Source: an uncultured Candidatus Saccharibacteria bacterium (GTDB taxonomy: Bacteria > Patescibacteriota > Dojkabacteria > SC72). Taken from it: a stretch of 38,309 nt of DNA. Positions 1,978 to 19,627 of this stretch are shown here, one piece after another. The translations under genes were made by a program, and so were the position numbers. Under the pieces are notes generated by a model. It ran no database searches. It was not told the origin of the DNA and saw only the letters and a program-made list of their open reading frames with translations. Positions within the stretch are counted from its first letter, which is position 1, and the number at the start of each line of letters is the position of its first letter. The stretch is from positions 1 to 38,309 of the forward strand of contig CAZAJR010000031.1 of assembly GCA_964485665.1 (NCBI GenBank), read 5' to 3'.

Positions 1978-2006
1978 ATTATATCAAACTATTCAAACTG
2001 TGCCAA
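1978..2006 (-). promoter_or_regulatory. Sigma70-type promoter for fusA: TTGGCA-17 nt-TATAAT with extended TG (TGATATAAT)
   Basis: The reverse complement of 1978-2006 is TTGGCAcagtttgaatagtttgaTATAAT. The -35 lies inside the 3' end of the upstream TPR gene. The predicted leader is about 58 nt to ATG 1913. Confidence 0.6.
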
Positions 2007-3434: not shown

Positions 3435-3443
3435 GGTATTTCT

Positions 3444-3472
3444 AGAATAGTTTAGTGCTATGAAATTGTCAA
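3444..3472 (-). promoter_or_regulatory. Promoter of the TPR gene: TTGACA-17 nt-TATTCT, only 9 nt from the ATG (near-leaderless)
   Basis: The reverse complement of 3444-3472 is TTGACAatttcatagcactaaacTATTCT. The start codon complement is at 3432-3434. Confidence 0.55.
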
Positions 3473-3493
3473 ATACAATTCAATTTTAAATCA

Positions 3494-3502
3494 TGTTATA
3501 CT
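3494..3502 (+). promoter_or_regulatory. Extended -10 element TGTTATACT, 12 nt upstream of the ATG at 3515
   Basis: TG at 3494-3495 and TATACT at 3497-3502. No good -35 (TACAAT sits at the 17-nt position). It lies back-to-back with the divergent TPR promoter. Confidence 0.4.
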
Positions 3503-3514
3503 AACAAACAACTT

Positions 3515-4438: not shown

Positions 4439-6451
4439 TTAAGCTTGCCAACTATAATATTCGCAGATATCCTGAGGTATTTCTCCCAAGAATCTAGATG
4501 GTATTTGATTACTATATCCTTCTCTTGTTTGTCTCCTTTCGGCGAATGTAAGATAGAGTTTTTCTTTAGCTCTTGTAATTCCTACATAACATAATCTTCT
4601 TTCTTCTTCTAGCTCATCTTCATCTGTAAACGAACGAGAGTGTGGTAACAAACCTTCTTCCATACCAATTATAAATACATACGGAAACTCTAAACCCTTT
4701 GAAGAATGTAGTGTCATCAAATGAAGATTTTGACCACTTCCATCTTGATTTTTATCTTGCTCTTGTTCAATTAAAGCTATTTCTTGTAAAAAGATCTCCA
4801 AAGATTCTTTGCCGTATTTTTTTACATAGCTGTCGGCTACATTCTTTAACTCTTCTATATTCTCTATCTTATACTGAGCTTGCTCTGAACCATCATCTAT
4901 ATCTTCTATATACTTGGTTTTAGAAAGTACTATATCTATAGCTTCCAAAGCATTACTGTTTTTTGCTCTGACATAAATATCCCCAAATGTAAGATATGCT
5001 TTCTTATATTTACTCAGTTCTTCCATATAGTCTCTTACCTTTCTAAGAAGATTCTTATTGACCTCTACACGATCTTGATCTTCGGGATTAACTATTAAAT
5101 AGGCTGATAATAGTAATTCTCCGAGAGTACACTTTGCTTTTTTAGCTATTTTATATAAGTGCACAGTACTTTTAGGACCTATTTTCCTACTGGGAACGTT
5201 GAGTACCCTATTTAAACTAAGTTCATCCTTAAGATTTACAACATATCTTAGATAACTAAGGATATCTTTAATCTCTTGTCTGTCGTAGAATCTAAAACCT
5301 CCCACTAATTTATATGGCAAACCGTTTCTAAGTAGTTCTTCTTCTACAACTCTCGATTGGTAATTAGTTCTGTATAAAACGGCGATCTGGGATAAAGAAA
5401 TATCTCTTCTTTGCAGATGAAGTATTTCATCTACAACGTACATTGCTTCTTCCTGCTGATCTTTAGCTTGATACATTGTGATATCCTCTCCTCTACCTTT
5501 AGCAGTCCACAGTTCTTTGTTTACTCTTGCAATGTTTTGTTGTATTACAGATACTGCAGCTTCTATGACATTTTTTGTAGAACGATAGTTACGTTCTAGT
5601 TTAATAACTTGTACATCATCAAAATCGTTTTCAAAGGATTGGATATTTTTGATGTCAGCTCCTCTCCAAGCATATATTCCTTGGTCATCGTCTCCTACAA
5701 CACAGATGTTTTTATATTTCTCAGATAGCAACTTTGCAAATTTATACTGTACCGTATTTGTGTCTTGATATTCATCAATCATTATATATTTATATCTTTC
5801 TTGATATTTTTCTAAAATATCTTTATGATCTTTGAGCATTTCGACGGTTAGATATAAGAGGTCTCCAAAATCTACACTGTTTTGTGCTCTTAGTTGTTTT
5901 TGGTATTCTGGATATATCTCTGCTGTAATATCTTCTAAAAATCCTCCATAGTGAAAAGAGAAATTTTCTGGAGATATTAATTCATTTTTGGCAGTTGATA
6001 TGTAGTTGGCTATAGATCTTGGTTTAATTTGTTTTGTGTCTATATCTTTTTGTTTAAGAAGATCTTTTATTAAATTTTCTGTATCTTTGCTATCGTATAT
6101 AGAAAAGTTGTGAGATAGATTTATCTTTTTAGCATTTTGTCTTAACATCATTGCTCCTATTGAATGAAACGTGCCTATTGTACATTTAGATTCATTGCTT
6201 ACATGTAATTCAGTTAGGAGTTCATTTACCCTTTCTTGCATTTCACCTGCTGCTTTTTTCGTAAATGTTACTGCTAATATATTGCTGGGATTTATAGATT
6301 TCTCTGATATGAGATATGCTATACGGTTTGTTATAACTCTGGTTTTTCCAGAGCCTGCACCAGCAAATACTAAAAGTGGACCTTTGATATGCTCTACTGC
6401 TTTTTTCTGTTGTGGGTTTAGTCTTGATAATATAGGACTTGTGTCCGCCAT
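4439..6451 (-). CDS. pcrA: ATP-dependent DNA helicase, UvrD/PcrA family (SF1)
   Basis: 670 aa carrying the full SF1 motif set: AGAGSGKT, TFTKKAA, DEYQDTN, VGDDDQGIYAWRGA, LERNYRS, TLHSSKGLEFPYVFI, RRLCYVGITRA. Confidence 0.92.
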   Translation of the reverse strand: MADTSPILSRLNPQQKKAVEHIKGPLLVFAGAGSGKTRVITNRIAYLISEKSINPSNILAVTFTKKAAGEMQERVNELLTELHVSNESKCTIGTFHSIGAMMLRQNAKKINLSHNFSIYDSKDTENLIKDLLKQKDIDTKQIKPRSIANYISTAKNELISPENFSFHYGGFLEDITAEIYPEYQKQLRAQNSVDFGDLLYLTVEMLKDHKDILEKYQERYKYIMIDEYQDTNTVQYKFAKLLSEKYKNICVVGDDDQGIYAWRGADIKNIQSFENDFDDVQVIKLERNYRSTKNVIEAAVSVIQQNIARVNKELWTAKGRGEDITMYQAKDQQEEAMYVVDEILHLQRRDISLSQIAVLYRTNYQSRVVEEELLRNGLPYKLVGGFRFYDRQEIKDILSYLRYVVNLKDELSLNRVLNVPSRKIGPKSTVHLYKIAKKAKCTLGELLLSAYLIVNPEDQDRVEVNKNLLRKVRDYMEELSKYKKAYLTFGDIYVRAKNSNALEAIDIVLSKTKYIEDIDDGSEQAQYKIENIEELKNVADSYVKKYGKESLEIFLQEIALIEQEQDKNQDGSGQNLHLMTLHSSKGLEFPYVFIIGMEEGLLPHSRSFTDEDELEEERRLCYVGITRAKEKLYLTFAERRQTREGYSNQIPSRFLGEIPQDICEYYSWQA

Positions 6452-6472: not shown

Positions 6473-7633
6473 TTACTCTAATTCTTCAGCAAAGGGACAA
6501 TAAAACCAGCCCTCTTTGTCGTCTCCGTACTTAATTTTATACCAACATGATTCGTGGTACTCAACAACAGGATATACCTCTCCATCGTTAACTACATCTA
6601 TCTTCTCACAACTAAATCTTCTACAGTTTCTAATGTTAACAAAACCGTATTCAGGCGAATCTATTTTTACAATCGTTTGATCACCTTTTTTCACTTCAAA
6701 TGCAATTGTAAATTCTGAGTTCTCAAATGGTTCATCTGCAAATTTCAATATGTTAAATTCTTCCGAGTACTCTCCTGGCTCTACTTTAGGATACAAAGAG
6801 AATGTAAACTCTGCTGTTTGACCTGGTAGTATATATTCTTCTGAGTCTAAATGGGTCGCTTTACTAAAACTATCCCATACTTCATTTACTGCAAACGGGC
6901 TTTCTTCTGAATCTTTTACAGATATATATATTGGGTTTTTATCAGATGTCCAAACAAAGTCATTATTGTTTTGGGCAGTAACTTTTACTTCTAGTTGCTC
7001 TCCTAATTCTACACTCTCGTTGTATTCAACACTTTCTATATTTGTTTTGTATTCTAAATGCTCCCTATCATATCCCTGCCAATCTTGAAGTGTTGAGTTA
7101 ATAGATTCTTTAAACAAAGAATTTGGTTCCTGGAGTTCTAATTGAGAGAAAGTTTCTTCCGTCTCTTTTATACTATATGCAGATATATCGTACTCTGTAA
7201 GACCAAATGTCTGTGAAAGATCGTTTGTTAAATTTAATATCTCTGTACTTGCTTTATTGCTTAGTTGTCCATTGTTGGATAAGTATCCTACAACTATATA
7301 GGAGTGGTCTAGGAGTTTAATGGCGTCATATGTTTGTGTTTTATAGATATTCCCACTTTCATCTACAATGTAATGATAGGGTATATTTCCTAGTTTTAGC
7401 TTAGTAATGCAGTAGTAGTAAATTGTGTTTAGGTAGTCTTCAGGGTTTAGTGGGAGTTTATCATAGTTCCCTTTTATTTGTGTGAACAAAATTTGCTTAG
7501 GTTCTTGATAGGAGTATTCAATTCCTTGTACTAAGGACGTATCAAATTTTTCAAAGGAGTTGCTGTATGCAAGTAGTGGTGTTACAAGAGAGAACAATAT
7601 TATGGTTGTAAAGAGAATTTTATTTAACTTCAT
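6473..7633 (-). CDS. Exported wall-binding protein: degenerate amidase_2/PGRP-like domain + Ig-like (NBR1-like) domain + C-terminal SH3b-like domain
   Basis: I place the start at ATG 7631-7633 (MKLNKILFTTIILFSLVTPLLAYS signal peptide); the track ORF begins at an upstream TTG (7648). GNIPYHYIVDESGNIYKTQ..SYIVVGYLSNNGQLS resembles the amidase_2 core (GYHFLID.dG.iyeGR..siGI). The C-terminus GEVYPVVEYHESCWYKIKYGDDKEGWFY is SH3b-like. Confidence 0.6.
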   Translation of the reverse strand: MKLNKILFTTIILFSLVTPLLAYSNSFEKFDTSLVQGIEYSYQEPKQILFTQIKGNYDKLPLNPEDYLNTIYYYCITKLKLGNIPYHYIVDESGNIYKTQTYDAIKLLDHSYIVVGYLSNNGQLSNKASTEILNLTNDLSQTFGLTEYDISAYSIKETEETFSQLELQEPNSLFKESINSTLQDWQGYDREHLEYKTNIESVEYNESVELGEQLEVKVTAQNNNDFVWTSDKNPIYISVKDSEESPFAVNEVWDSFSKATHLDSEEYILPGQTAEFTFSLYPKVEPGEYSEEFNILKFADEPFENSEFTIAFEVKKGDQTIVKIDSPEYGFVNIRNCRRFSCEKIDVVNDGEVYPVVEYHESCWYKIKYGDDKEGWFYCPFAEELE

Positions 7634-7701
7634 GTTACATTGTATCAACTAATCGGGAGTTTTTACATATTAACATCTAGCAGTCTTAATGAAAATTTCT
7701 A

Positions 7702-8694
7702 TTATTGCCCAACTACAATATACTCTGGATCAACTGCGTTGGTATATCCCACAGCGGGCACTGAGTATATTTCATCTTCATATTCAACAGAACATTCTAA
7801 ATCTAAACGAAGTACAGGAGTAAGAAATTCTTGCTCAAAGGATTGATAAAGATAGACTAGTTTGTTTGATACGGCATTACAATTTGTAATTTCTTGCTGT
7901 AATTGTAGTATTTCATCATTTAAATATTCGTTTTCTATAGATAGTGCTGAAGCTATTTTCCCTGGATTAAAATATATTGATTTAGGATATTGTGGAGAAT
8001 TTATATATTCACTGAGATCTTCTAATTCAATTACAGGCAAATACTGCTGAGTATCAAGAAATCCTGTAAGAAGTATTCTACCAGACATGATCTTCCCATT
8101 TTTTATGGATAAATAATCTGTTTCGCTGTAAAGCTCAGTGGTTTCCAGGATAACGTCGTTTGTCAGTACTCTATTGGCGTAGTACAGTGTTAAACCATCA
8201 GGATAATTCTGTTTACTGTTAAAAGTATATTCCCAATCTCTATCAAAGTATCTTTTTACAAAAATGGTAAACGAGTTTGATGAAAGTTCTACCTCTTCCC
8301 AATCAATACCTTCATTCAAACTAAATGTTAAGATGTTTTTTAACAAAGAGTACTGAAAATAATTTCCTTGGTCATCGGACCAATAGTAGTACTCTCCTTC
8401 CACCTGATCTGTGAGATCAATTTTAGAAGCAATTTTATCTATCATATTTTCTATTTCCTCCTTACTTGTCTCTTGTGAGATTTCCCAGAATTTGTAATCT
8501 TTCATTTCATAGTTTTTTATACCTTGGATATTTATACTAACCTCACTCTCCGTCCCCAATGCTGATTGTGTTATAGGTTCTTTTGGATAGTTGTTATCTT
8601 TAGATGAAAAAACAAAATAGAAAAGTACGCCTAAAGCTGTCAAAAGGCTTGTTACCAAAATCAGTATTATTATTTTTCTGTTTTCTTTTTTCAT
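7702..8694 (-). CDS. Bitopic membrane protein of unknown function (N-terminal TM anchor, ~300-aa outside domain)
   Basis: 330-aa ORF with anchor IIILILVTSLLTALGVLFYFVF. I recognise no motif. There is a 12-nt gap to the upstream gene. Confidence 0.6.
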   Translation of the reverse strand: MKKENRKIIILILVTSLLTALGVLFYFVFSSKDNNYPKEPITQSALGTESEVSINIQGIKNYEMKDYKFWEISQETSKEEIENMIDKIASKIDLTDQVEGEYYYWSDDQGNYFQYSLLKNILTFSLNEGIDWEEVELSSNSFTIFVKRYFDRDWEYTFNSKQNYPDGLTLYYANRVLTNDVILETTELYSETDYLSIKNGKIMSGRILLTGFLDTQQYLPVIELEDLSEYINSPQYPKSIYFNPGKIASALSIENEYLNDEILQLQQEITNCNAVSNKLVYLYQSFEQEFLTPVLRLDLECSVEYEDEIYSVPAVGYTNAVDPEYIVVGQ

Positions 8695-8706
8695 ATATTT
8701 TTTATA

Positions 8707-11526
8707 TTACTCAGTGATATAGCAAACGTCATGAACTGGACACGTACCTATAGAGCAACCGAAATCTTCATTTAAAACATCTCTTGGATTATATGTTCGA
8801 CCATCAACCTTAACAACAACGTGAGCATGAAGTCCTGTAGAACACATTCTCCATGATTCATCATGAACTATTGTCGCAACAGCTTGTCCGGGTCCAAGTT
8901 TTTGACCAGATGAGACTCCTATAGCGACATGAAGGATGTAGAATTGATATGTTCTTCCTTGATATGTAGCAGAAAATTGTACAAATCCTCCTGCTGGGTA
9001 TTGACCTCCACCACAAGTAGCTTGCCCTACCGCATCTACTACACAATTACCTTCTGCTACGTTACAAAATTGAGGTGCAGCAAAGTTTCCTCCTATAGCA
9101 ACATCTATAGCGGGAGAGTTTTTATGACTTGGTTGTTTGTACCCAGGTTTAGTACAGTAAGAGAATGGTCCTTGTGTACATCTTAAATTAGATCCTGCAA
9201 CAAACAGACATGTTTCTCCTGCTGGTAGATTACCAGATACAAATTCGGGTAATTGACCATCTCCTTCATAGTAGTTTCCTTCATCATCTATTGGGTTTAA
9301 ACCCATCTCTTGACCATAGCTAGTAAAATTAGGATTCTTATACACCTCTCCAGGTATTTCATAGGTATATTCGCTCATTTTCGCCATTTTAGAATCAGCG
9401 TAACCTACTGATAGTATTAAGAATCCAAATACAGCAATTGTAATACCTAAAAACACATACGCCGTTACTTTTAATGTAACCTTTAATAATTTATCAAGTG
9501 CTGCAGAAACAATTAGTGTAACTGCAGCACCAACAGGTCCAGCAAAAGCAGTCCCTGCTAATCCTAAAGCACTAACAACAGCCTTTGACAAGGCTCCTGT
9601 TAATGCTTTACCACCTGCTTTTTTCCAAGCCTCTAACAGGGCCATGGCTGCCTTATCTTTAGCAAACCATTTCGCATTAGCAAGAAGCTTATAAATACCC
9701 TTTCTAAACCCTTCTTTCACCTTATCAACAGTATTTTTAACAACCCAAGCTTTAATTCTTTGGGGAGTATTAAAGGCCCATGCTAACCCCGACCACCCTT
9801 CTATCTTTTTTAAAAGCTTTTCAGCTTTTTTAAATTTTTTAGCAAAATCACTATCACCTTTTTCTAAAGCCCATAAAATTTTATTCATAAGAATCCGATA
9901 TCCCTCATTTTCTTTTAATAAATTCTCTCTTGCTTCGTCCGAAGTAGCCCCTTTAAACTTCCTATAAAATTGCCAGAACCCTCTGGTCCTTAATTTCCCC
10001 AATTCGCCCTCCCCAGCTTTTATTCCCCAGAACTGGGCACTTGTTAATTTGTCAAAATTCTTATCTGCCACCCACGCAAAAGCTTCCCCTGTAGCTAATG
10101 ATCTTATCCAAGTAGTCGGCATCATATAATACATATTAACCATCATCTGATTATAGTGATCACGAAGACGTCTTTCTTTCATACCTTTTTCTTTTTCATC
10201 AAATCGATCAAGCTTTACTAACCTAACTGCTTTATAAAAATCAATCTCTATATTTTTAGGATTACCATCATCGTCTCTATCAAGTTGATTTTTTCTAAAT
10301 GTTATGAACTTTGCATTGCTAGAAGGACAAGCCCAAGTACTTTTCCTCGGATCCAAAAAATCTCCTATTAAAAAGGACCCCAATCCGCCTGGCCCTAAGG
10401 CATTTTGAATTCCATAATAAGCACCTTCCCATTTTCCTAAATTACTCCAAAATTTCATCTGCGAAAGAGCACTTGAACTACTATTAATTGCCTTAATATT
10501 TTCCCTAATACTACTTAATGTTCTATTTCTCTCTGCACTAGAAGAAAATGTTATTTGTCCTGATCTAATTTTTTTTAATTGATCGACAAGAGTTTCTTTT
10601 CTTTTTGACAATTCCTTGCGTGCTTTCTTAAATTCATTTTGGTTTTGGGGTAAATTGTCATATCGACCCCATAACCCTATCAAACTTCTCGCTTGTTCCA
10701 TTTTGTCATATTTATTCTTTTCATTTTCACTAAGAGAATCCCTACTTCGTCCATTTAAAACCTCTTCCTGCTTTGCTCTAAACTCTTCTCTAAGAAGCGA
10801 TCTAAAACCAAACAATGGATCAAAGTTGACCTCATCGGTTCCATCTGTTGCAATGTTATAAGCAGACTCTATTGCCCTCTTCTGACTCTCTAAACGAGCT
10901 TTAACATCAGGGGAACTGGCTCTATTTATCATGGCCTCCAGTCGATCTAATCGATTTTTTACACTACCACTATTATAAAGTTTCTCAGCTGCATCAATCA
11001 TCCAAGCTTGATCTGTTTCCCTTCCCTGCATTGCAACTTGTCCCACCCCCCTTTCCAAAACAGCTTTCATTTCAGGATCATATCCTTCAAAAAGACCTGC
11101 ATGTTTAGCATATGTACTTCCCGCCAACATTCTCATCTGTTCACCTGCCCACTGAAGCCTTTGCATTTTAGAAAGTTTCCTGTTTTTTTCAAACAAAGCA
11201 TCAACAAACTTTCCAGGATCACTTACTATATCAGGAATATCACTTAGTTTTATCTTTACAACACCAATACGATCTTTTTGAGTATTTATCTTGGTCTCCA
11301 AATCAACCAAATTTTGTAAAGTACCTAAGGTTTGTTCTCCTACAAACACACCCGGAGCAGCTAAAGCATCAACTACTGCTGAAACATATTCCGAATCCGC
11401 TTGTGAATCACTTTTGTCTTGTTTAATAGGCCTTCTTTTATCGGGTGGTTTTTCAGACTGTTCTAGGATAAAACCTAAAATATCTGAAACCGAAGATATT
11501 GTTTTACTATCATTTTTATTGGCCAT
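8707..11526 (-). CDS. Large membrane protein: ~640-aa basic helical N-terminal region, glycine-zipper TM pair, Cys-containing C-terminal M23/LytM-like peptidase domain
   Basis: 939 aa. Hydrophobic block ALTGALSKAVVSALGLAGTAFAGPVGAAVTLIVSAAL..AYVFLGITIAVFGFLILSVGY (about nt 9397-9610). The C-terminal 140 aa (nt ~8710-9129) align by eye with lysostaphin/LytM: AIDVAIGGNFAAP, YILHV, GQKLGPGQAVATI, STGLHAHVVV (canonical STGPHLHFEV). Confidence 0.7.
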   Translation of the reverse strand: MANKNDSKTISSVSDILGFILEQSEKPPDKRRPIKQDKSDSQADSEYVSAVVDALAAPGVFVGEQTLGTLQNLVDLETKINTQKDRIGVVKIKLSDIPDIVSDPGKFVDALFEKNRKLSKMQRLQWAGEQMRMLAGSTYAKHAGLFEGYDPEMKAVLERGVGQVAMQGRETDQAWMIDAAEKLYNSGSVKNRLDRLEAMINRASSPDVKARLESQKRAIESAYNIATDGTDEVNFDPLFGFRSLLREEFRAKQEEVLNGRSRDSLSENEKNKYDKMEQARSLIGLWGRYDNLPQNQNEFKKARKELSKRKETLVDQLKKIRSGQITFSSSAERNRTLSSIRENIKAINSSSSALSQMKFWSNLGKWEGAYYGIQNALGPGGLGSFLIGDFLDPRKSTWACPSSNAKFITFRKNQLDRDDDGNPKNIEIDFYKAVRLVKLDRFDEKEKGMKERRLRDHYNQMMVNMYYMMPTTWIRSLATGEAFAWVADKNFDKLTSAQFWGIKAGEGELGKLRTRGFWQFYRKFKGATSDEARENLLKENEGYRILMNKILWALEKGDSDFAKKFKKAEKLLKKIEGWSGLAWAFNTPQRIKAWVVKNTVDKVKEGFRKGIYKLLANAKWFAKDKAAMALLEAWKKAGGKALTGALSKAVVSALGLAGTAFAGPVGAAVTLIVSAALDKLLKVTLKVTAYVFLGITIAVFGFLILSVGYADSKMAKMSEYTYEIPGEVYKNPNFTSYGQEMGLNPIDDEGNYYEGDGQLPEFVSGNLPAGETCLFVAGSNLRCTQGPFSYCTKPGYKQPSHKNSPAIDVAIGGNFAAPQFCNVAEGNCVVDAVGQATCGGGQYPAGGFVQFSATYQGRTYQFYILHVAIGVSSGQKLGPGQAVATIVHDESWRMCSTGLHAHVVVKVDGRTYNPRDVLNEDFGCSIGTCPVHDVCYITE

Positions 11527-11527
11527 A

Positions 11528-12958
11528 CTATTGCTTTACCAAAAGCTTACCAACTAAAGGTATTTTACTTATTGCAACTTGAGATTGTTGGGCAGCCTGT
11601 AATGCTTCTTTACTAGATGTTGGAGGAATAATAACTTCGGCGTATTTATCTGCCTTAGAAGCTAAAAAGAGGACTAGAATTTGTAATAAGAAAATGGTGA
11701 TTGAATTAATTAAAGTTCCATCAAGAAGACTCTCAACAAACTTCTGCTGACCAAGAGTTAATTGGTCTGGGCCTGGAAGATTAAGCTCCCCCCCGCTCAA
11801 GGAATATAGAAGGCTTGGCAAATTTAAAAACGCAAAAGTTATTGGGTATACAAGGACATTTCTAAATATATTCTTGATCCAATTTATAAATGCCACATTT
11901 TTCCCAGGTATCGCAGACATAACTATTTGAAATGGGCCTGTTATAACATGGAGAAGTATACCTAGATACGCTTTAAGTAAAGTCATAAAAACCATAAAGA
12001 CCCCAATGGTACCTATGATTACAATTATCAGCAACATTACTAAAGTTGCAAAACTTGCCCCACCAATACCAGGAAGAAAAGAGAACCAAAAAGATAGTCC
12101 TAACGCTGGTTTAAATATCTCAAAAAAACTGCCCCCCGCCTCAATTTCTATACCTAAAAGATTTTCTATTGTTTCAATAAGAGCCTGAGGCGCTAAAACA
12201 TCAAAGATACTAGTAAAAGATTCTAATGTAATGATATGATCAAATTCTCCGACTTCTCGAACTATATCTGCTAACAAACCCATAATTAATCCTCCTATAT
12301 CTATAAGAATTCCAGCTATAGCAAAACTAAAAGTAACGCCTATTAGTGCCAAGATTATATTAGGCAATGTGTTACCCAAAGTAACTAGAGTCTGTCCACC
12401 TAATTTGCTTCTAAACATAATCATAAACCCAACAACAATCATTATTATAATAAAAAGTACATAGGTAATATTTCTTGATACTGACCAAATTTTATCAATG
12501 CCTGTATCCCTAAGAACCTCATAACCAGAATCTGCTGCATATACCGAAGTGTTCTCGTATCCAGGCACCCATTCTTCTGCCAAATGTGCATATACATTAA
12601 CTAATGGCTGAGATTGATACATAGAATTTAAAGAGTCTTCTGTCATTCCATATATCCCTCTTTTTGCACTGATAGGTAAATTTTCTGACTCTTGTATAAG
12701 AGCATTGCCTGAAGTAGCTTCTGGATAAAATCTTACAACCCATGTTGCTACTTTAGCATCTCCACTAACAGTTGTTGCATAAGCTGCATTATAATCATCA
12801 ACCTCAAGCTCATGCGCTTTGTTAACAGTTTCTACACTATTCTTATAGACTTCCTGCAAATCTATTTTCCCTTCCTCCACAGCATAAGCGTTCATGGACA
12901 TAAAAAACATAAATATCATAACTATGATAACTAGAAGGTCTGTATAAAGTTTCTTCAT
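11528..12958 (-). CDS. Polytopic integral membrane protein (cleavable signal peptide, ~130-aa outside domain, then about 7 TM segments); VirB6/TrbL- or SpoIIIAE-like architecture only
   Basis: 476 aa. Signal peptide LLVIIVMIFMFFMSMNAYA|VEEG. Hydrophobic segments include ITYVLFIIIMIVVGFMIMF, IILALIGVTFSFAIAGILIDIGGLIMGLL, FATLVMLLIIVIIGTIGVFMVFMTLL, LGILLHVITGPFQIVMSAI, VLVYPITFAFLNLPSLLYSL, INSITIFLLQILVLFLA. Its stop codon lies 1 nt from the next start codon. Confidence 0.65.
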   Translation of the reverse strand: MKKLYTDLLVIIVMIFMFFMSMNAYAVEEGKIDLQEVYKNSVETVNKAHELEVDDYNAAYATTVSGDAKVATWVVRFYPEATSGNALIQESENLPISAKRGIYGMTEDSLNSMYQSQPLVNVYAHLAEEWVPGYENTSVYAADSGYEVLRDTGIDKIWSVSRNITYVLFIIIMIVVGFMIMFRSKLGGQTLVTLGNTLPNIILALIGVTFSFAIAGILIDIGGLIMGLLADIVREVGEFDHIITLESFTSIFDVLAPQALIETIENLLGIEIEAGGSFFEIFKPALGLSFWFSFLPGIGGASFATLVMLLIIVIIGTIGVFMVFMTLLKAYLGILLHVITGPFQIVMSAIPGKNVAFINWIKNIFRNVLVYPITFAFLNLPSLLYSLSGGELNLPGPDQLTLGQQKFVESLLDGTLINSITIFLLQILVLFLASKADKYAEVIIPPTSSKEALQAAQQSQVAISKIPLVGKLLVKQ

Positions 12959-12987
12959 TTTTAGAACTAAATATATTTTAAATAAAT

Positions 12988-14355
12988 TTACATCTTTTTA
13001 GGCTCATCTGTTCTATTCTCTGCTTCGTCAATATGAAAATTCAGATACTCCATTGTATCAGGATACTCCTCTCCAGGTAAATTGTCATACGATTGAAACT
13101 CTACTTCCTTAGAAATGTAGTCTATATCCCATGCACATTTTAATGTCTGTTCATCTATACCATCTATTCTAGCAACACAATCTGTTAAAAGATATACGTT
13201 ACCACCAGTATCTCCTCCAGGTATTTTAACATTTCCAGCTCTTAACTCATTAAACTCATTAACACATTGGCCATTTTCTGCGCAATCCTGTTTAGTCCCA
13301 AAAGGGGATTCCATAATAATTATAATATTGGCAGTACTAACACAATCCCCACCCTCTTCACTTCCCTCTGTACAAGAATTAGCATCAAATATATTATTAA
13401 TTCTCTTAACAAATGATACTATCACTTCCTTTAAGGATGGTGTACAACCTATTGGAGCTGTTCCTTCAACATCCATATTCAAGAAAGTTGAATCATCCGA
13501 GCAACTCTCTATATTTTCAGAAACTTCCTGCTCATCTACTTCATCATAGTAACCTGGTATTTGACTCAATCCTGCCAATATAGAACTTGTATCTAAGTAT
13601 TTTTGTAGAGTTCCACTGGATGGGTTGTTACATTTTTCTCCACAATCATTTGTATAGTACTGATCTACTGTAAATTGGTTTTCTCCACCACCACTAGCAT
13701 CTCCACCGACATTAACATTATATTCAACCCCAAAAGGCACGTTTCTACTATTGTCTGCAGCGTCTAAAATAGCTTTTGTATTCTCATCTCCAGGATATGT
13801 ATTGCTTTCAATAACTCTCCTACTAATCATCTCCCCTGCAGGTTTCAATGTCTCATGATAATTTCCCTTAGTGTCCCTATATATCTGTCTTACCTCACTA
13901 TCCATAGTTGGAGATCCACTTAACAAGGGTGGTACAACAACACTAACCAAACTTATGGACGCATCTCTGCTAATCACTGATCCAACCTCTACCTCACCAC
14001 CTCCTTTTAAATCTGCCTGAAAACCTCCTTGAGAATCTGTCGTAGAGCAAATTTTCTCTGATGAATACACCAAATCTGTAGTCCGACATGTTGTTGTATC
14101 ATTTTCACTTAATACCAGATCTGGATACACTCTTTTTACTGGGTTTAATTCATCATCTACTTCCAAAAAGATATCTTGGACTAAATGATTTTGTTCTAAT
14201 TGGTTCTGAACATTCTCTGTTAAAGTATATTCTTCTGTTTCCAAACTCCTTGTACTAGCATTTACATTATCAAACTTTTTAACAGCAAAATATGCGAACA
14301 GTGCAATGGCTAAAAAAAGTAATAATGTTTTTCTTCTACGTGCTTTCTCGGACAT
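12988..14355 (-). CDS. Membrane-anchored acidic Cys-containing exported protein, unknown function
   Basis: 455 aa with anchor TLLLFLAIALFAYFAV. I count 12 cysteines, all in the predicted outside part. No recognisable motif and no Walker A. Confidence 0.6.
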   Translation of the reverse strand: MSEKARRRKTLLLFLAIALFAYFAVKKFDNVNASTRSLETEEYTLTENVQNQLEQNHLVQDIFLEVDDELNPVKRVYPDLVLSENDTTTCRTTDLVYSSEKICSTTDSQGGFQADLKGGGEVEVGSVISRDASISLVSVVVPPLLSGSPTMDSEVRQIYRDTKGNYHETLKPAGEMISRRVIESNTYPGDENTKAILDAADNSRNVPFGVEYNVNVGGDASGGGENQFTVDQYYTNDCGEKCNNPSSGTLQKYLDTSSILAGLSQIPGYYDEVDEQEVSENIESCSDDSTFLNMDVEGTAPIGCTPSLKEVIVSFVKRINNIFDANSCTEGSEEGGDCVSTANIIIIMESPFGTKQDCAENGQCVNEFNELRAGNVKIPGGDTGGNVYLLTDCVARIDGIDEQTLKCAWDIDYISKEVEFQSYDNLPGEEYPDTMEYLNFHIDEAENRTDEPKKM

Positions 14356-14360
14356 AATAT

Positions 14361-14389
14361 AATATACATTGATTGATATTACTAATCAA
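14361..14389 (-). promoter_or_regulatory. Candidate internal promoter TTGATT-17 nt-TATATT, 5 nt from the ATG at 14355 (leaderless layout)
   Basis: The reverse complement of 14361-14389 is TTGATTagtaatatcaatcaatgTATATT. It lies immediately after the stop codon of the upstream gene. Confidence 0.4.
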
Positions 14390-14393
14390 CGTT

Positions 14394-16031
14394 TTATTCC
14401 GTTAAAATACCGTAATCTGTAAGGGGAGATATTTTCACAAAGGTTTTAGAAGTTTGATCAATAGTTATTTCAACCTCATCAGACATCGCTTCTCCTACAG
14501 TCATCTCTACATCCTCTACATTAGAAAGAGTCATAGGATTAAGAGTTACAATATCATTACTGCTTTCATTAAAATATTCCCCATCTTCATCTCTTGCACT
14601 ACCAATGGTGAGTATCCAAGAACCCTCACTGTCAACTAAGGTTGATAATGGATTACTTGAACCAGATGATCCTGTTCCATCGTTATCTCTGAAGGTAACA
14701 ACTATTGCAATATTATCATAATTATTAACATTTACTACTCCAGCTATAGTTTCAAATTCTGGTGGAGTAGATTGTGTGGCATACGTTGTAAGTTCATAGA
14801 TTTCGTCGTATGCTTCATCTTCGGAATAGACTTGGAAATAATATTTCGTTTCAGGTCCTAGTTGCGTTAGCTCTATACTATGCAAATAATACTGCCCTTG
14901 AGAAGATATTCCATCTCTTTCATCTCTTCCTTTCTCGGACAAATCCTCTGCATCTGTTCCATACATCACATACCCGGTTTGCTCTGTTTGGGAAAACCAA
15001 AGGATAGTAACACCTGTATCTGTTAAGTTAGCTGTTAATACAGTATCAGGACCGTATTCTGTAGGACTTGTAGAAGTTAATTGGTCTGTAGAGACCAAAT
15101 TAATCCACTCTAAATCTGATTTTAGTTCATACTCTCTTTCAAAAGAATCTTCTGTTTGCTCCGTATCATCCTCATCCGTATCAAAATCTGTTTCGTCGTT
15201 GTTGTTTGTATCATCAGAAATATCACTCTCAGTTTCCTCTTCCTCGTAGTCCTCGTTATCTTCAGCTTGAGCTATCAATTTAGCTTTTTCATTTATATAT
15301 CCATAATACTCTTGACCACTTGATATTAGGTTTTCTGTTAGTTCTCCACTTGAATTGAATATATCTGTGTATACTCCTTGTACTACTCCTCCATCGTCTA
15401 CTCCTGATACTGCAATGATGGTTAAATTTGTTGAATCTGAAACCTGGTACAAACTCTTATCAGATATCCTCCGAAGCGATGATAGATCGATCAACCAATT
15501 TCCATTACTTGAGGGTGTACTTACAACCGGATACGTACTTTTATCAGATGGAAAAACGTATACAAGTGTATCTTCATTTCCACCCTGTATTTGTCCATGT
15601 ATAGGTTTAGGTACGGGGGTATCTGTAGATATATTGGCTGTACTAAAAAGAAATTCGTTTCCTTCACTACTCGTATATATATCACTTCCTGATACTATCC
15701 TAAAACTGTACTTAGTTCCAGGTTCCAAATTTGTTAACTCAACATAGTGGGTATACTTTTTAGATGAGCCTCTTTTGTCAGTTACTGTGCCTTGTTCTTT
15801 GCCATTTAGTACTGGTACTACAGCACCGGTTTGTTTGTCTTCTGTAGTCCATGTTATCGTTGCAGAACTAGTTGTAAGATTTGCTATAGCAATATTATTA
15901 GGCTGAGTATTAGTGCCTGCACTTGTGAACCACTGTACTGCTTTGTATATTCCAAATATTGTTAATGGTATACCTATTACTAGAATCAAAACCGTCGTTA
16001 ATTGTTTTTTTTGGTAGGGAGTTAAATACAT
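14394..16031 (-). CDS. Membrane-anchored surface protein with two [FN3-like (purple-acid-phosphatase-N type) + beta-rich] modules joined by a poly-acidic linker
   Basis: 545 aa with anchor LTTVLILVIGIPLTIFGIY. FN3-like 1: NLTTSSATITWTTEDKQTGAVV..YTHYVELTNLEPGTKYSFRIVSG. FN3-like 2: NLTDTGVTILWFSQTEQTGYVMYG..YYLHSIELTQLGPETKYYFQVYS. Linker EDNEDYEEEETESDISDDTNNNDETDFDTDEDDTEQTEDS (nt ~15131-15262). No cysteine. Confidence 0.7.
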   Translation of the reverse strand: MYLTPYQKKQLTTVLILVIGIPLTIFGIYKAVQWFTSAGTNTQPNNIAIANLTTSSATITWTTEDKQTGAVVPVLNGKEQGTVTDKRGSSKKYTHYVELTNLEPGTKYSFRIVSGSDIYTSSEGNEFLFSTANISTDTPVPKPIHGQIQGGNEDTLVYVFPSDKSTYPVVSTPSSNGNWLIDLSSLRRISDKSLYQVSDSTNLTIIAVSGVDDGGVVQGVYTDIFNSSGELTENLISSGQEYYGYINEKAKLIAQAEDNEDYEEEETESDISDDTNNNDETDFDTDEDDTEQTEDSFEREYELKSDLEWINLVSTDQLTSTSPTEYGPDTVLTANLTDTGVTILWFSQTEQTGYVMYGTDAEDLSEKGRDERDGISSQGQYYLHSIELTQLGPETKYYFQVYSEDEAYDEIYELTTYATQSTPPEFETIAGVVNVNNYDNIAIVVTFRDNDGTGSSGSSNPLSTLVDSEGSWILTIGSARDEDGEYFNESSNDIVTLNPMTLSNVEDVEMTVGEAMSDEVEITIDQTSKTFVKISPLTDYGILTE

Positions 16032-16037
16032 TAGTCT

Positions 16038-16066
16038 ATATTACCTTTTCTTTAAGGTTTAGACAA
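16038..16066 (-). promoter_or_regulatory. Candidate internal promoter TTGTCT-17 nt-TAATAT, 6 nt from the ATG at 16031 (leaderless layout)
   Basis: The reverse complement of 16038-16066 is TTGTCTaaaccttaaagaaaaggTAATAT. It sits in the only sizeable gap (100 nt) of the cluster. Confidence 0.45.
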
Positions 16067-16131
16067 ATAATTTTTGTAATCTTGATTAGATAATGCTATC
16101 GATTTTCTACTCCTTAGAAAGTAGCACGTAA

Positions 16132-16425
16132 CTATTTTTTAAGTCCTTGTAGAAAAGAGAATATGTTAGCTAATACTCCCCCTATAGCTCTTACTGGTGT
16201 TACTATAGATTGGTTTACTTCTTCTACTGTAGCTCTAGCAGTATTAACTATTTCTTGTGCATCTTCCAATATCTTATTAGTTTTCTTTAATGTCTCTTTT
16301 GTTTCTGTAACTACTCCTCTTGAGTCTTTAATTAGCATACCTAATTCAAAGAGTATAAAGGTAAAGAATGCTACAGGTACTCCTATTATTATCATCCAAT
16401 ATATTGATGGTATTGTTTCGAACAT
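16132..16425 (-). CDS. Small membrane-anchored coiled-coil protein (DUF948/YtxH-like)
   Basis: 97 aa. N-terminal TM IYWMIIIGVPVAFFTFILFELGML, followed by a helical segment KETLKKTNKILEDAQEIVNTARATVEEVNQSI. This is the layout of the DUF948/YtxH small proteins of Firmicutes; the assignment is by pattern only. Confidence 0.5.
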   Translation of the reverse strand: MFETIPSIYWMIIIGVPVAFFTFILFELGMLIKDSRGVVTETKETLKKTNKILEDAQEIVNTARATVEEVNQSIVTPVRAIGGVLANIFSFLQGLKK

Positions 16426-16470
16426 AGTTTTTAATGTCTTAAGTTATATGTTTAAGGATAACAAATATTC

Positions 16471-19400
16471 TTAGTTATTACCACCTAGCTCCGGTTGCCA
16501 GTTTCCTTTGCCTTCAGTTATTCTTACAAAGTATGATTCTAGTATATTGAGTGGGTAATCAAATCCGTATTCTTCTCCATCGCTTAGTTGATATCCTTCA
16601 TACATCTGTTTATCACCAGCCCATTTGGTTACGTTGTCTGCAGTAAAGTTATCCTGATTTATATCCTCTATCAGTGTTTTAGCAGTATATGATTTAATAC
16701 CTGAACCGTATAGTCCTATTAGGTTCCATCCTTGAGTCATGTGTATTGGTGATTTATCTTCGTCTGTTTCTAGTTGTACTGGTTGTCCCACAATACTTAT
16801 ATTTATATCTTCCTTAGCTTTAATCATATATCCTTCCCCTGGTAGTAGTTGGAAGTCGTTGTTGTCATATATATCTACATTTTGTCCTACTATTTTCCAT
16901 CTTCCATCAAATTTAGAGATTGAATAGAATGCGTCATCATATACTTCGTTTAGTTTGGTAAGTAGTCCAGCGGCTGTTCTGTAGTCTTCATAAGAAATTA
17001 AAAACGGCAATGATATAAAGTTCAAACCAGCTTTAAGATTGTATCTATAAGTCTTTTCTACAGTACTAATGTTGATAGTTGAAGCTATTTCGCTAACATT
17101 TATGTCAATTCCCTCATCATATTTACCGTTGTCATTATCGTCTATATATACTAGAACCCCATCAGTATCTACAACTCCAACATCAAAAGCATAGCTTTCT
17201 CCTTGATATTCAAATATGTAAGTCCCCTGATCAATTTGAGTAAACATTCCCGTTGATTTATCAATAAGAAACTGGTTCTCTATCTCTCGTCCTAGTACCT
17301 GCGAAGTAAGATCTTTAAAAGATATTAAATTATCATCATTTTGATTTGTTGAACTAGACTCAGGCTTTTCCCCACTACAGTAAAATTGTTCACCTCGTGC
17401 TTTCGGACGATTATCCCAAGTACAAGTTATACCACTTCTACTACATACAGCTCCTTCCTTCTTGTCTGCACAAATCCTGTTGTACGAATCGCCCACATTA
17501 TTCAGTGTTAATCTAGATTCTCTACACCATTCATTTACACTTATTGTTCTACCTTTGTCAACACCGTCGACACATTTACATCTCTTTTCTTTACATTCCT
17601 CGCCCGCACCTATTTGATCAACTTCAATCGCGATACTTTCTTCACTCCCCTCATATTCCTTCCAAATTAATTTGTCACCTCCCCATGATTCTACTTTGCA
17701 TATATAGTAATCACCTGAACTAGCTAAACACAACTCTTGAACTCGGTTACACGTGTCCCCTAAACTACACCAATTTTCTGAACCATTCTCCACTGGATCA
17801 GAGATCCAACGGCCATCAGAACATCTCATTCTATTTTCTCCCGAGCCCTTATAAAGAGTGTGTCTAGATCTCTTAGTCCAACAGAGCTCATCAGGTGTGT
17901 AAGGAATACATTCTCCTTCTTGATTCCACTTACCTAAACCCCCATCAGAGCATTCGGAACCTGGTATTACACATTTGTTAGTAGTTGAGCATACGCCATT
18001 TCCAAGAGTCCTTTCACAAGATCTCCCCACATTATTAGGTCCACACCACTGAACAGGATCTTCTACAGTAACATCTTCCGACCCTGTAGATTCATCATCA
18101 GTTATCTCTTCCTCCTTGGCTATCTGGATATTACATAGTCCCCCAGAATTTTCATAGTAAAAATAATTATCATCTTCACGACAAGGCTCCCCATACGGAG
18201 AGGTATTCGTAGAAGTTGAGGGCGAGGGGTCGCTTTTAGGCGTATGAACATGTCCATCTGAAACACCTTCGCACTTTTTAGAATCTACCCCCTTTGTACT
18301 CCAAAGATAAAAAGAACCTGTAGAATTGCGTTGACATTTTTTACAATCATTACCAAATTGGAGATAGTCCCCAGGATTACCACCCCCAGCACATTTCTTA
18401 CTACTATCTGTATTTGATCGCTTATTTTCCTGCTTTCTTCTATTAGCAGCCTCTCTAACATCCTCTAGAGTACTATCCGATTCACCATTACATCCCCTAG
18501 CTTCCAATGTAGCTTGCGGACAAGAACAACTATTCGTGAGAACATCCTTATAACAAGGCCCACAAAATTCCATAAACTTACAACTTCCAGCCTTTACCCC
18601 TTTAATCAATTCACTATTTAGTTTAGAACTCAATTTCTCTACCCCAAACTCTGCATCATTTATCATCAAAGGATCATTAATAACAATCCAATCGGTGGGA
18701 GATACATTGTCAAAAATTACTCTCTTTAAAAACCTCCCTCGCGGTCCTGCATCTATTAGCAATTCAACAAAGATATTAGTTGTTGTCTCCTCAAATCTAC
18801 TAATAAAATGCTCTCCATCCTCCCCAACAGCATTAGAAACATCAATATACCAATTACCACTATCATTAAAACTACTAGAATATACAGAACTCCTTTCACC
18901 TGTAAACTCATCTAAATAGTTAAAATACATAACCCCATCCGTAACAGGAACAAGTTCGTCTATTAGTATATCCTCCTGATTATTAGCATCCTTAACAGTA
19001 CCATAGGCAGGAACAGGACTCTTAATTTGCTCAGGTGTTTGTAATGTAGAAACAACTGTATTACCATCAACATCCTCTACCTCTCTAAAAAGATATTTAT
19101 CTCCTACCATAAAAGAATACTCAGTCTCAGGATCTAAACCTGTAACAGTAACATGATGAGTATAGTACTCACCCATATCAGTAACAACTACATCAGTTTG
19201 AAAATCATCTATTGATACAGTTAAATCATCATCCTCTACAATATTATCAGATGTCTGCTGTACAGCTAACAGCTCCGCCTCTTTAACATCTCTAGTATCA
19301 AAGAATCTATCACCATTATGATATATAGAGAAAGGAATAAACCTATCACCCTCAAAAATCCTTACAGAGGCAGGTATAGCTTTCCTCGTATTCCAACTAA

Positions 19401-19548
19401 CCGTAACAGAACTAGAAGTTACATTAGTAAAATGTACATCATTAGGCCTTATCCTAACATACTCATATACAAACAAACCCACAACCCCTAGAATTAAAAA
19501 AAGAGCTGAGAAGAAAATGGTTAGAAACCTCTTTTTAGATAATTTCAT
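16471..19548 (-). CDS. Giant membrane-anchored surface protein: FN3-like + beta-rich module, 402-aa cysteine-rich block, Ca-binding-like loop, C-terminal tandem repeat
   Basis: 1025 aa with anchor FLTIFFSALFLILGVVGLFVY. FN3-like NVTSSSVTVSWNTRKAIPASVRIFEG..YYTHHVTVTGLDPETEYSFMVGDK is paralogous to the 545-aa protein. I count 32 Cys between aa 323 and 724 (nt 17377-18582) and none elsewhere. DDNDNGKYDEGID is a DxDxNG-type loop. The C-terminal repeat is GLNFISLPF..FQLLPGEGYMIKA followed by GWNLIGLYG..LNILESYFVRI. Confidence 0.7.
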   Translation of the reverse strand: MKLSKKRFLTIFFSALFLILGVVGLFVYEYVRIRPNDVHFTNVTSSSVTVSWNTRKAIPASVRIFEGDRFIPFSIYHNGDRFFDTRDVKEAELLAVQQTSDNIVEDDDLTVSIDDFQTDVVVTDMGEYYTHHVTVTGLDPETEYSFMVGDKYLFREVEDVDGNTVVSTLQTPEQIKSPVPAYGTVKDANNQEDILIDELVPVTDGVMYFNYLDEFTGERSSVYSSSFNDSGNWYIDVSNAVGEDGEHFISRFEETTTNIFVELLIDAGPRGRFLKRVIFDNVSPTDWIVINDPLMINDAEFGVEKLSSKLNSELIKGVKAGSCKFMEFCGPCYKDVLTNSCSCPQATLEARGCNGESDSTLEDVREAANRRKQENKRSNTDSSKKCAGGGNPGDYLQFGNDCKKCQRNSTGSFYLWSTKGVDSKKCEGVSDGHVHTPKSDPSPSTSTNTSPYGEPCREDDNYFYYENSGGLCNIQIAKEEEITDDESTGSEDVTVEDPVQWCGPNNVGRSCERTLGNGVCSTTNKCVIPGSECSDGGLGKWNQEGECIPYTPDELCWTKRSRHTLYKGSGENRMRCSDGRWISDPVENGSENWCSLGDTCNRVQELCLASSGDYYICKVESWGGDKLIWKEYEGSEESIAIEVDQIGAGEECKEKRCKCVDGVDKGRTISVNEWCRESRLTLNNVGDSYNRICADKKEGAVCSRSGITCTWDNRPKARGEQFYCSGEKPESSSTNQNDDNLISFKDLTSQVLGREIENQFLIDKSTGMFTQIDQGTYIFEYQGESYAFDVGVVDTDGVLVYIDDNDNGKYDEGIDINVSEIASTINISTVEKTYRYNLKAGLNFISLPFLISYEDYRTAAGLLTKLNEVYDDAFYSISKFDGRWKIVGQNVDIYDNNDFQLLPGEGYMIKAKEDINISIVGQPVQLETDEDKSPIHMTQGWNLIGLYGSGIKSYTAKTLIEDINQDNFTADNVTKWAGDKQMYEGYQLSDGEEYGFDYPLNILESYFVRITEGKGNWQPELGGNN

Positions 19549-19576
19549 TGTAAAAGATATATATATTAATTACTAT

Positions 19577-19605
19577 AAATTACCCTTTAATGAAGATCAT
19601 GTCAA
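19577..19605 (-). promoter_or_regulatory. Candidate promoter for the envelope cluster: TTGACA-17 nt-TAATTT
   Basis: The reverse complement of 19577-19605 is TTGACAtgatcttcattaaagggTAATTT, 28 nt upstream of ATG 19548. It lies in the divergent intergenic region shared with rsmE. Confidence 0.4.
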
Positions 19606-19612
19606 TCAAAGA

Positions 19613-19621
19613 TGATATAAT
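19613..19621 (+). promoter_or_regulatory. Extended -10 element TGATATAAT, 6 nt upstream of the rsmE ATG (leaderless layout)
   Basis: Exact TGATATAAT at 19613-19621; ATG at 19628. No convincing -35. Confidence 0.45.
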
Positions 19622-19627
19622 CAACAT

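Follow-up and report, generated by a model that had tools for sequence, protein, structure and literature searches.

A conserved gene cluster for envelope proteins of Dojkabacteria that includes a likely, remote relative of VirB6 and a predicted M23 peptidase

Introduction

Type IV secretion systems (T4SSs) of the Patescibacteria have been described before (PMC10633639, PMC12102498, PMC12857230), and in one species tested the system is essential for epibiotic growth (PMC10633639). A survey found VirB6 homologues to be scarce in Microgenomatia, which was ascribed to extreme sequence divergence, and detected few VirB8 homologues, nearly all of them in the class ABY1 (PMC12102498). Dojkabacteria assemblies are listed as VirB4-positive in Table S1 of the same survey (PMC12102498), whose preprint names Dojkabacteria among the T4SS-bearing groups. 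Here we analyze a stretch of 38,309 nucleotides, in the following termed the window, from an uncultured Candidatus Saccharibacteria bacterium (GTDB lineage Dojkabacteria; SC72; assembly GCA_964485665.1, contig CAZAJR010000031.1). The bacterium belongs to Candidatus Dojkabacteria (WS6), is tiny and probably depends on a host. The window contains a cluster of eight consecutive open reading frames (ORFs) on the minus strand, spanning positions 6473-19548, which we term G1 to G8 in the order of their transcription (Table 1).

Other known systems are relevant to this cluster. Conjugation of the ICEBs1 type uses the PcrA of the host. YycI and YycH restrain WalK, the kinase in control of autolysins. 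The cortex-lytic enzyme SleB has YpeB, which is encoded next to it, as its obligate partner. A preliminary description of the cluster, made from the sequence alone, had proposed that its products form an uncharacterized envelope or cell-contact apparatus, whose central trio (G5, G6 and G7) resembles Gram-positive conjugative T4SSs and echoes the SpoIIIAE/SpoIIQ pairing. Our analysis leads us to favor, with modest confidence, the view that the cluster encodes the channel and the wall-breaching part of a patescibacterial (MPF_FATA-like) T4SS-like machine, which would be split from its ATPase and pilin genes and elaborated with lineage-specific extracellular proteins.

Results

G5 starts with a signal peptide or membrane anchor, which is followed by ~135 aa of lineage-specific ectodomain and by a conserved core that has, according to hydropathy, ~5 transmembrane (TM) helices. 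When a profile of 26 orthologues was searched against 1.84 billion representative proteins, it recovered a family of 3789 clusters at E ≤ 1e-3. The homologues of G5 carry source names such as Candidatus Dojkabacteria and candidate division WS6, and named members of the family come from Woesebacteria, Gottesmanbacteria and the Microgenomates group. Outside of the Dojkabacteria only the TM core aligns (profile positions ~160-497), and it does so in proteins of 470-880 aa.

Using an alignment of these distant relatives, we fetched 80 metagenomic loci, which were annotated using hidden Markov models (HMMs) seeded from PrgJ of pCF10, TrwK of R388 and the Pfam-annotated genes of the loci L088 and L089. 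Two distant G5-like genes sit directly after arrays of T4SS_pilin genes (PF18895), and one of them has genes for PrgI and a TraC-like protein downstream. The loci of Microgenomatia have a stereotyped organization, in which 6-9 pilin genes are followed on the same strand by the genes for a protein of 800-1230 aa, the G5-like protein, PrgI/VirB3, a TrsD/TraC-like protein, VirB4 and an M23 protein of 780-910 aa. One gene on the opposite strand is often found between the G5-like and the PrgI/VirB3 gene. At least three pilin genes are present in 24 out of 29 loci having at least 6 kb of upstream sequence, and PrgI in 19 out of 29 loci having at least 9.3 kb downstream; VirB4 was reached in 11 loci. 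Pfam confirms nearly all sampled pilin ORFs (55 of 58) as PF18895. Because of this stereotyped arrangement of pilin, PrgI, TrsD and VirB4 genes, we conclude that the G5 family fills the VirB6 position of the patescibacterial T4SS. UniRef calls a Gottesmanbacteria protein TrbL/VirB6 that shares a 90% cluster with the family member P0245; this match is not obtained again with current Pfam.

The similarity to VirB6 was also analyzed at the level of profiles. As a reference we used ten plasmid-encoded VirB6 proteins of the MPF_T type, combined into one profile. In hhalign, the G5-like profile of the Microgenomatia type aligns with it over 126 columns (probability 73.6%, E 2.9e-5), and two profiles containing Dojkabacteria sequences do so with E-values of 6.9e-4 and 1e-3. 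The three alignments are in one register, in which the invariant GP..I, W and N of both families superpose. Their scores are 47.9, 37.1 and 35.8, compared to 15-16 ± 3 for column-shuffled VirB6 controls (maximum 24.9, n = 40) and 18-20 for reversed ones. The Pfam family TrbL (PF04610) matches two of 40 distant G5 relatives at 5.4e-4 and none of ten further ones, and a sequence-profile search of the PDB with G5 gave no match. Finally, we modeled G5 with AlphaFold2 at moderate confidence (pLDDT 68.7). The five PDB chains that match this model best in Foldseek all belong to TrwI/VirB6 of the R388 machine, with E-values of 0.4-1.6. Taken together, membership of G5 in the VirB6 family is likely but remote.

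Within G5, conservation is highest in a TM hairpin at aa 154-224, which is encoded at positions 12287-12499 on the minus strand of the window. This invariant hairpin, GFMIMFRSKLGGQ...TFSFAIAG, aligns along the full VirB2-like pilin domain PF18895 (hhalign E 0.0023, probability 12%), and PF18895 matches two Gottesmanbacteria/Microgenomates relatives of G5 at E 0.008. A clean pilin HMM matches only 3 of 173 G5-like proteins at E ≤ 1e-3. Judged by these weak matches, the hairpin may either be a pilin-like module within a VirB6-like protein or show a mere resemblance between TM helices. If it is the former, VirB6-like proteins from Candidate Phyla Radiation (CPR) bacteria may contain a built-in pilin-like module whose role is to prime the assembly of pili.

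Two other proteins encoded in the Microgenomatia loci lack a Pfam match. One is the conserved protein of 800-1230 aa whose gene is flanked by the pilin array and the gene for the G5-like protein, the other a protein of 570-985 aa that is encoded on the opposite strand after the G5-like gene. Examples of such unassigned proteins are found at L135 996-4172, L156 7175-9640, L149 4569-8261 and equivalent positions. Both are further components of the T4SS locus.

The first ~640 aa of G6 are helical, have no signal peptide and contain a single Cys. Hydrophobic or TM segments at aa 655-705 are followed by a C-terminal Cys-rich M23 metallopeptidase domain (~770-939), and 10 of the 11 Cys lie after the TM region. 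The lack of a signal peptide and the distribution of the Cys suggest that the first 640 aa are cytoplasmic. Pfam gives no M23 match on the G6 of the window and a weak Peptidase_M23 match on its orthologue in the deep-branching locus L086. A profile of 43 orthologues matches ~15 M23 peptidases in the PDB, the best being ShyA (7e-5). In these orthologues H866 is invariant (43/43), and D808 (38/43), H801 (35/43), H902 (33/43) and H900 (32/43) are widely kept. The first motif, H801-x6-D808, is unusual compared to the HxxxD of M23 enzymes, and H900xH902 is found in ~75% of the orthologues. G6 is thus a predicted M23 peptidase, both membrane-anchored and with its catalytic residues kept. In the Microgenomatia loci, the protein encoded directly 3' of VirB4 is built in the same manner: its N-terminal region is long, hydrophobic segments come next, and a Peptidase_M23 domain (Pfam 7.7e-24 to 1.6e-10) forms the C-terminus.

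The otherwise poorly conserved 640-aa region of G6 begins with a conserved motif within aa 1-60 (DNA 11347-11526). It includes F19, K30, P33 and an invariant P58, its consensus is DALGSIFDFIF..KPP.KRKP, and it could be a docking site.

G7 was modeled with 20 sequences from a protein search, which yielded a confident structure (pLDDT 89.6, pTM 0.82). It is a bitopic protein that has an N-terminal TM anchor and three alpha/beta ectodomains of the YycI/YycH/YpeB type. Its Foldseek matches include EUBREC_2869 (5coz, 1.6e-7), YycI (2o3o, 6e-7 to 8e-6) and the C-terminal domain of YpeB (5boi, 2.8e-4); for YycI, the probability is 1.0 at an E-value of 6e-7, with a TM-score of only 0.35-0.48. There is no Pfam YycI/YycH match on G7, no match in a PDB sequence-profile search and no histidine kinase gene in the window. 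A VirB8-like nature of G7 was considered and rejected, since neither VirB8 nor PrgL or TraM is among the top 50 Foldseek matches of the model. In view of the 12-nt gap that separates its gene from that of G6 and of its YycI- and YpeB-like structural relatives, G7 is most simply explained as a protein that probably partners or regulates the hydrolase G6.

G8 combines an N-terminal domain resembling PGRP/amidase_2 proteins with a beta-rich middle region and a C-terminal SH3b domain. The latter is detected by Pfam (SH3_3, 3.8e-6), and the orthologue profile matches PGRP-SD (6.1e-5), PGRP-I-beta (2.2e-4) and the SH3b of an autolytic lysozyme (4.5e-6). At the position of the first zinc-ligand His, G8 has Q52 (33 of 37 orthologues), which aligns with the His of 'IIHT', and its PGRP-like domain lacks any conserved His or Cys. 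Because the His/His/Cys triad that binds zinc is not kept, G8 shares the fold of PGRPs but is probably not an enzyme. Its sequence suggests a secreted protein that probably binds peptidoglycan.

The properties of G6, G7 and G8 raise a second explanation, namely that the cluster encodes a complex for cell-wall remodeling or autolysin control, which acts in growth or cell separation and has no role in secretion. In such a complex G7 would regulate G6, G8 would target it, a VirB6-derived G5 would be a mere scaffold, and the FN3 and Cys-rich proteins would be structural partners associated with the wall. The closest structural matches of G7, YycI and the C-terminal domain of YpeB, fit this explanation, as does the prediction from sequence that, among the seven core products, three are binders or hydrolases of peptidoglycan. 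Moreover, the cluster is universal, single-copy and situated among housekeeping genes, and neither it nor its conserved surroundings contain an ATPase, pilin or VirB3 gene. However, the relatives of G5 are found specifically inside T4SS loci of the sister class, the same M23 architecture is linked to the T4SS in Microgenomatia, and no divisome or elongasome gene is part of the cluster. We regard wall remodeling, the main rival of a split T4SS, as a serious but rather unlikely explanation.

We then surveyed the conservation of the cluster in one genome per GTDB species. A relative was found in 475 genomes, from which the 80 best loci were taken for comparison by tblastn and ORF extraction. All 80 show the order PNPase, rsmB, rsmE, (G1), G2-G8, pcrA, G5-domain protein and TPR protein, and synteny persists down to ~32% identity of G5. 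The arrangement is thus no coincidence. G2 was found in 65 and orthologues of G3 in 69 loci. The G4 slot, defined as the interval between G3 and G5, is occupied in 67 out of 67 loci by an ORF of 421-521 aa with a median of 13 Cys, and the G7 slot in 55 out of 57. A G1-like gene between rsmE and G2 is present in 21 and absent in 26 of 47 informative loci; the conserved core therefore comprises the seven genes G2-G8, and G1 is optional. Thus, the preliminary description was right in proposing a conserved, uncharacterized envelope gene set, and gene order in related genomes, by which it was to be checked, is kept, but its eight-gene unit is reduced to seven genes and an accessory one.

Three deep-branching loci (L086, L087 and L181) retain G2, G3, G5, G6, G7, G8 and pcrA between the same flanks. 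They contain two tandem paralogues of G5 (L086 10001-13506, L087 10001-13453 and L181 699-3865). In L086 and L087 the G4 slot holds a protein of 718-765 aa, of which the L086 copy only has a Pfam Amidase_2 match, and a DsbA/thioredoxin gene adjoins the G2 homologue.

Since gene order and flanks are constant across the loci, the cluster is chromosomal and inherited vertically; it is a module of the class Dojkabacteria and not a mobile element. This bears on the explanation that it is the remnant of an integrated conjugative element or of a prophage tail module, made up of a VirB6-like protein, a hydrolase and a long helical protein reminiscent of a tape measure. Such an origin is suggested by the order polytopic protein, hydrolase and bitopic protein, which resembles the Tn916 orf15-14-13 region as seen in pCF10, and by G6 itself, in which a long helical region precedes a lytic domain. 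It is, however, effectively refuted by the same chromosomal position and flanks in 80 species, which hold even where G5 identity is as low as ~32%. In addition, the window contains no integrase, relaxase or tRNA gene, the GC content of the cluster is not distinct from that of its flanks, and PHROGs gives only weak peptidase and amidase matches. We consider a mobile origin hardly credible. The pcrA gene lies directly 3' of G8 in every locus examined, including those of the deep lineage. Synteny with housekeeping genes extends over the entire region, so the adjacency is perhaps no more than conserved gene order.

The remaining products of the cluster are the anchored ectoproteins G1, G3 and G4 and the small membrane protein G2. 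G1 has an N-terminal membrane anchor, one FN3/Pur_ac_phosph_N module (Pfam Pur_ac_phosph_N 7.8e-9, fn3 9.6e-5), 32 Cys, all of which lie at aa 323-724, and a C-terminal region to which no domain could be assigned; it is a surface protein of accessory nature, found in some loci only. G3 is bitopic, contains no Cys and has two FN3/Pur_ac_phosph_N modules split by an acidic linker (Pur_ac_phosph_N 1.7e-19 in two stretches, fn3 2.9e-11). G4, also bitopic, is an extracellular Cys-rich protein. It has 12 Cys and diverges fast, eight Cys being invariant in 39 orthologues, and no match was found in Pfam, NCBIfam or PDB-profile searches. An extracellular location of the Cys-rich parts is consistent both with the distribution of the Cys and with the presence of a DsbA gene next to the cluster in the deep lineage. 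In G2, an N-terminal TM helix precedes a charged helical region, which varies in length, and the C-terminus is amphipathic and rich in Gly/Ser. DUF948 (PF06103) matches 28 of 37 G2 orthologues at E ≤ 0.01 (best 1.9e-6, below gathering), and the G2 of the window reaches 18.8 bits, the gathering score being 37.2. The window's G2 also matches T4SS_pilin (PF18895) at 5e-4, below gathering and in the TM helix only. We rejected G2 as a VirB2-like pilin, because the pilin model matches a single one of the 37 orthologues, compared to 28 for DUF948.

These proteins suggest a further explanation: a surface adhesion or host-attachment array, whose core would be the FN3, Cys-rich and SH3b proteins, with G5 and G6 helping in export or insertion and no channel to the host. 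Three FN3 modules, the 32-Cys block and the variable G1 are what would be expected of fast-evolving surface proteins. The same holds for the G4 slot, which diverges quickly and in the deep lineage is filled by the different 718-765 aa protein (with the Amidase_2 match in L086). The most conserved genes, however, are G5, G8 and G2 and not those of putative adhesins, G3 and G4 are anchored at the N-terminus only and have no domain known from adhesins, and it would be left unexplained why the G5 relatives occur in a T4SS context. An array of this kind appears decidedly improbable to us.

Table 1. Positions of the genes of the cluster and of adjoining features in the window
Feature	Position	Strand	Size	Remark
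G1	16471..19548	-	1025 aa	
G2	16132..16425	-	97 aa	
G3	14394..16031	-	545 aa	
G4	12988..14355	-	455 aa	
G5	11528..12958	-	476 aa	
G6	8707..11526	-	939 aa	
G7	7702..8694	-	330 aa	
G8	6473..7648	-	391 aa	from TTG; 386 aa from ATG at 7633
pcrA	4439..6451			next gene 3' of G8
G1/rsmE divergent intergenic region	19549..19627		79 nt	sole sizeable non-coding gap at the head of the cluster

The ORF coordinates reproduce the layout given in the preliminary description. The eight same-strand ORFs have the stated lengths, the gaps from G1 to G8 are 45, 100, 38, 29, 1, 12 and 68 nt (the last being 53 nt if the TTG start of G8 is used), and 21 nt separate G8 from pcrA. That all products are membrane-anchored or exported is borne out by hydropathy, which detects internal TM segments in G6 and, in the other seven (G1, G2, G3, G4, G5, G7 and G8), a hydrophobic segment at the N-terminus. 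Most of the proposed parts were found again by Pfam or hydropathy (three FN3-like modules, the 32-Cys block, the polytopic protein and SH3b; DUF948 weakly), and orthologue profiles compared with the PDB recovered the M23 domain of G6 and the pseudo-amidase part of G8. In agreement with the earlier parts list, Pfam reveals no ATPase, secretin, relaxase or glycosyltransferase in G1-G8, and no pilin above threshold. G4, G5, G6 and G7 are without any Pfam match. A scan with NCBIfam adds nothing to this.

The divergent gap between G1 and rsmE is the presumed promoter region; a scan for consensus promoters and terminators revealed nothing above chance in it or in the internal gaps. At the borders of the cluster there is no step in base composition, its GC content being like that of the flanks, and tRNA and Rfam scans of the window gave zero matches. 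The other genes of the window are housekeeping genes (PNPase, RsmB, RsmE, IF-2, NusA, DnaJ, AlaRS and RuvX), together with genes for a sortase and a solute-binding protein. The G5-domain protein (307 aa) and the TPR protein (481 aa), encoded at positions 1989-4438 beside pcrA, keep their position in nearly all related loci. The sortase-domain and solute-binding proteins are encoded in the region 27874-32291, as is a protein of 685 aa that contains a bacterial Ig domain (Big_7). As listed, the sortase ORF overlaps with the 5' end of dnaJ, which is on the opposite strand, so that its true start probably lies further downstream.

Discussion

Our view that the cluster belongs to a split T4SS-like machine is based on the T4SS context of the G5 relatives, their remote similarity to VirB6, the T4SS-linked M23 architecture and the conserved synteny. 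The predicted placement of the Cys-rich parts outside the cell and the survey's data on VirB4 and VirB6 (PMC12102498) are in line with it. In such a machine G5 would oligomerize in the cytoplasmic membrane and form a channel or an assembly platform. G6 would be anchored beside it, with its long N-terminal domain facing the cytoplasm, and its extracellular M23 domain would cleave nearby peptide cross-links and thereby allow the machine to pass through the wall. G7 would position or restrain this hydrolase, G8 would tie the assembly to peptidoglycan, and G2, G3, G4 and the optional G1 would make up the extracellular, wall-spanning or host-contact part. We infer in this proposal the physical assembly, the topology of G6, the cooperation with an unlinked VirB4 and the function in transport or host contact.

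A number of results weigh against this proposal. The link between G5 and VirB6 is remote, as seen from the E-values of the Foldseek matches and the pLDDT of the model they are based on. Moreover, Pfam TrbL does not match the G5 of the window at E < 1, and single-sequence hhalign comparisons of G5 profiles with TrwI or PrgH gave no match. The hhalign match between G6 and the VirB4-adjacent M23 proteins of Microgenomatia (probability 96.5) covers the M23 domain only, the N-terminal regions of the two being analogous in position, and the G6 HMM has no match in the Microgenomatia T4SS loci. G7 is not VirB8-like, and its structural relatives control or stabilize cell-wall hydrolases. HMMs of G1, G2, G3, G4, G7 and G8 did not reveal a relative in the Microgenomatia loci, so that five core proteins (G2, G3, G4, G7 and G8) are without detectable counterpart there. 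Finally, VirB4, TrsD, PrgI/VirB3, VirD4 and a VirB2-like pilin were found neither in the cluster nor in the window or in 80+ Dojkabacteria loci; for VirB4, TrsD and PrgI, HMMs built from Microgenomatia loci were used. An ATPase does exist elsewhere in Dojkabacteria genomes, since the survey lists Dojkabacteria assemblies as VirB4-positive (PMC12102498). The VirB4 locus of these genomes may, however, hold its own VirB6-like and hydrolase genes, in which case the cluster would be a paralogous, separate system.

A bolder variant is that Dojkabacteria possess a VirB6-centered trans-envelope machine that is independent of VirB4, genetically and perhaps also functionally, and that would represent a new envelope conduit or host-contact organelle. 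Its parts would be a channel derived from VirB6, a YycI-like regulator, spikes of FN3 and Cys-rich proteins and a giant M23 protein, 640 aa of which form a cytoplasmic domain. We think of such a machine as improbable.

What is new here is the assignment of a large, previously unnamed family as the VirB6-position protein and its split organization in Dojkabacteria. New as well is the association of this protein with M23, YycI/YpeB-like, pseudo-PGRP/SH3b, DUF948 and FN3/Cys-rich proteins. The family of 3789 clusters is a candidate for the VirB6 that has been reported to be scarce in Microgenomatia (PMC12102498). In Dojkabacteria, the VirB6-like component is detached from the ATPase genes and lies inside a fixed seven-gene envelope module. 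The products of this module provide concrete candidates for those parts of the machine that cross the wall or make contact with the host. The split locus can be seen as a natural experiment on which parts work together. This should be useful for dissecting a machine that is essential but functionally obscure; the function we propose for the cluster is inferred.

How does the cluster compare to known systems? The echo of the SpoIIIA-SpoIIQ channel was not borne out: Spore_III_AE does not match G5 at E < 1, and the M23 domain of G6 keeps its His and Asp and is not degenerate. The order given for Tn916 (membrane protein, lysozyme/C40 peptidase, conjugal transfer protein) is indeed present in the pCF10 record, and the cluster has in common with Tn916 orf15-14-13 and PrgH...PrgK-PrgL of pCF10 the order polytopic protein, peptidoglycan hydrolase and bitopic protein. 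In both cases the hydrolase is a large, membrane-anchored multidomain protein. In the cluster, however, it is of the M23 type only and not lysozyme/CHAP/NlpC-P60, and the bitopic G7 is YycI/YpeB-like rather than VirB8/NTF2-like. Moreover, there is no VirB4 between or beside the genes of the cluster, which is not on a mobile element. Of the T4SS-like trio that had been suggested, the VirB6-like G5 and a G6 that is similar to VirB4-adjacent M23 proteins hold up, but the VirB8-like member does not; for the polytopic G5, the resemblance goes beyond mere architecture.

With YycH and YycI, the WalK regulators, and with YpeB-SleB of Firmicutes, G7 shares the N-terminal TM anchor and the fold of tandem alpha/beta ectodomains. 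As in the case of YpeB, its gene adjoins that of a peptidoglycan hydrolase. In contrast to these proteins, G7 lacks a family match at the sequence level and has no histidine kinase nearby, and its partner enzyme would be an M23 peptidase instead of a lytic transglycosylase.

The relation of G5 to VirB6/TrbL (TrwI of R388; PF04610) is a remote profile similarity over the TM core with its GP..I, W and N. Unlike VirB6/TrbL proteins, the G5 of the window has no Pfam match, and it carries the lineage-specific N-terminal ectodomain of ~135 aa as well as a highly conserved extra hairpin (GFMIMFR...TFSFAIAG) that has no equivalent in the aligned region of VirB6. Like them it is polytopic, with ~5 TM helices and an extracytoplasmic N-terminal region, and TrwI is its best Foldseek match.

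The closest described system is the MPF_FATA-like T4SS of the CPR (Wang et al. 2023 PMC10633639; Quinonero-Coronel et al. 2025 PMC12102498). The Dojkabacteria cluster differs from it in lacking VirB4, TrsD, PrgI/VirB3 and an array of VirB2-like pilins, and in having G2, G3, G4, G7 and G8, which are without counterpart in the Microgenomatia loci. Furthermore, G5 and G6 are adjacent in the cluster, whereas the ATPase genes intervene in Microgenomatia. Common to both, however, is that they are chromosomal and without a relaxase, that the system comes with a large membrane protein whose C-terminal domain is of the M23 type, and that the protein in the VirB6 position belongs to the G5 family.

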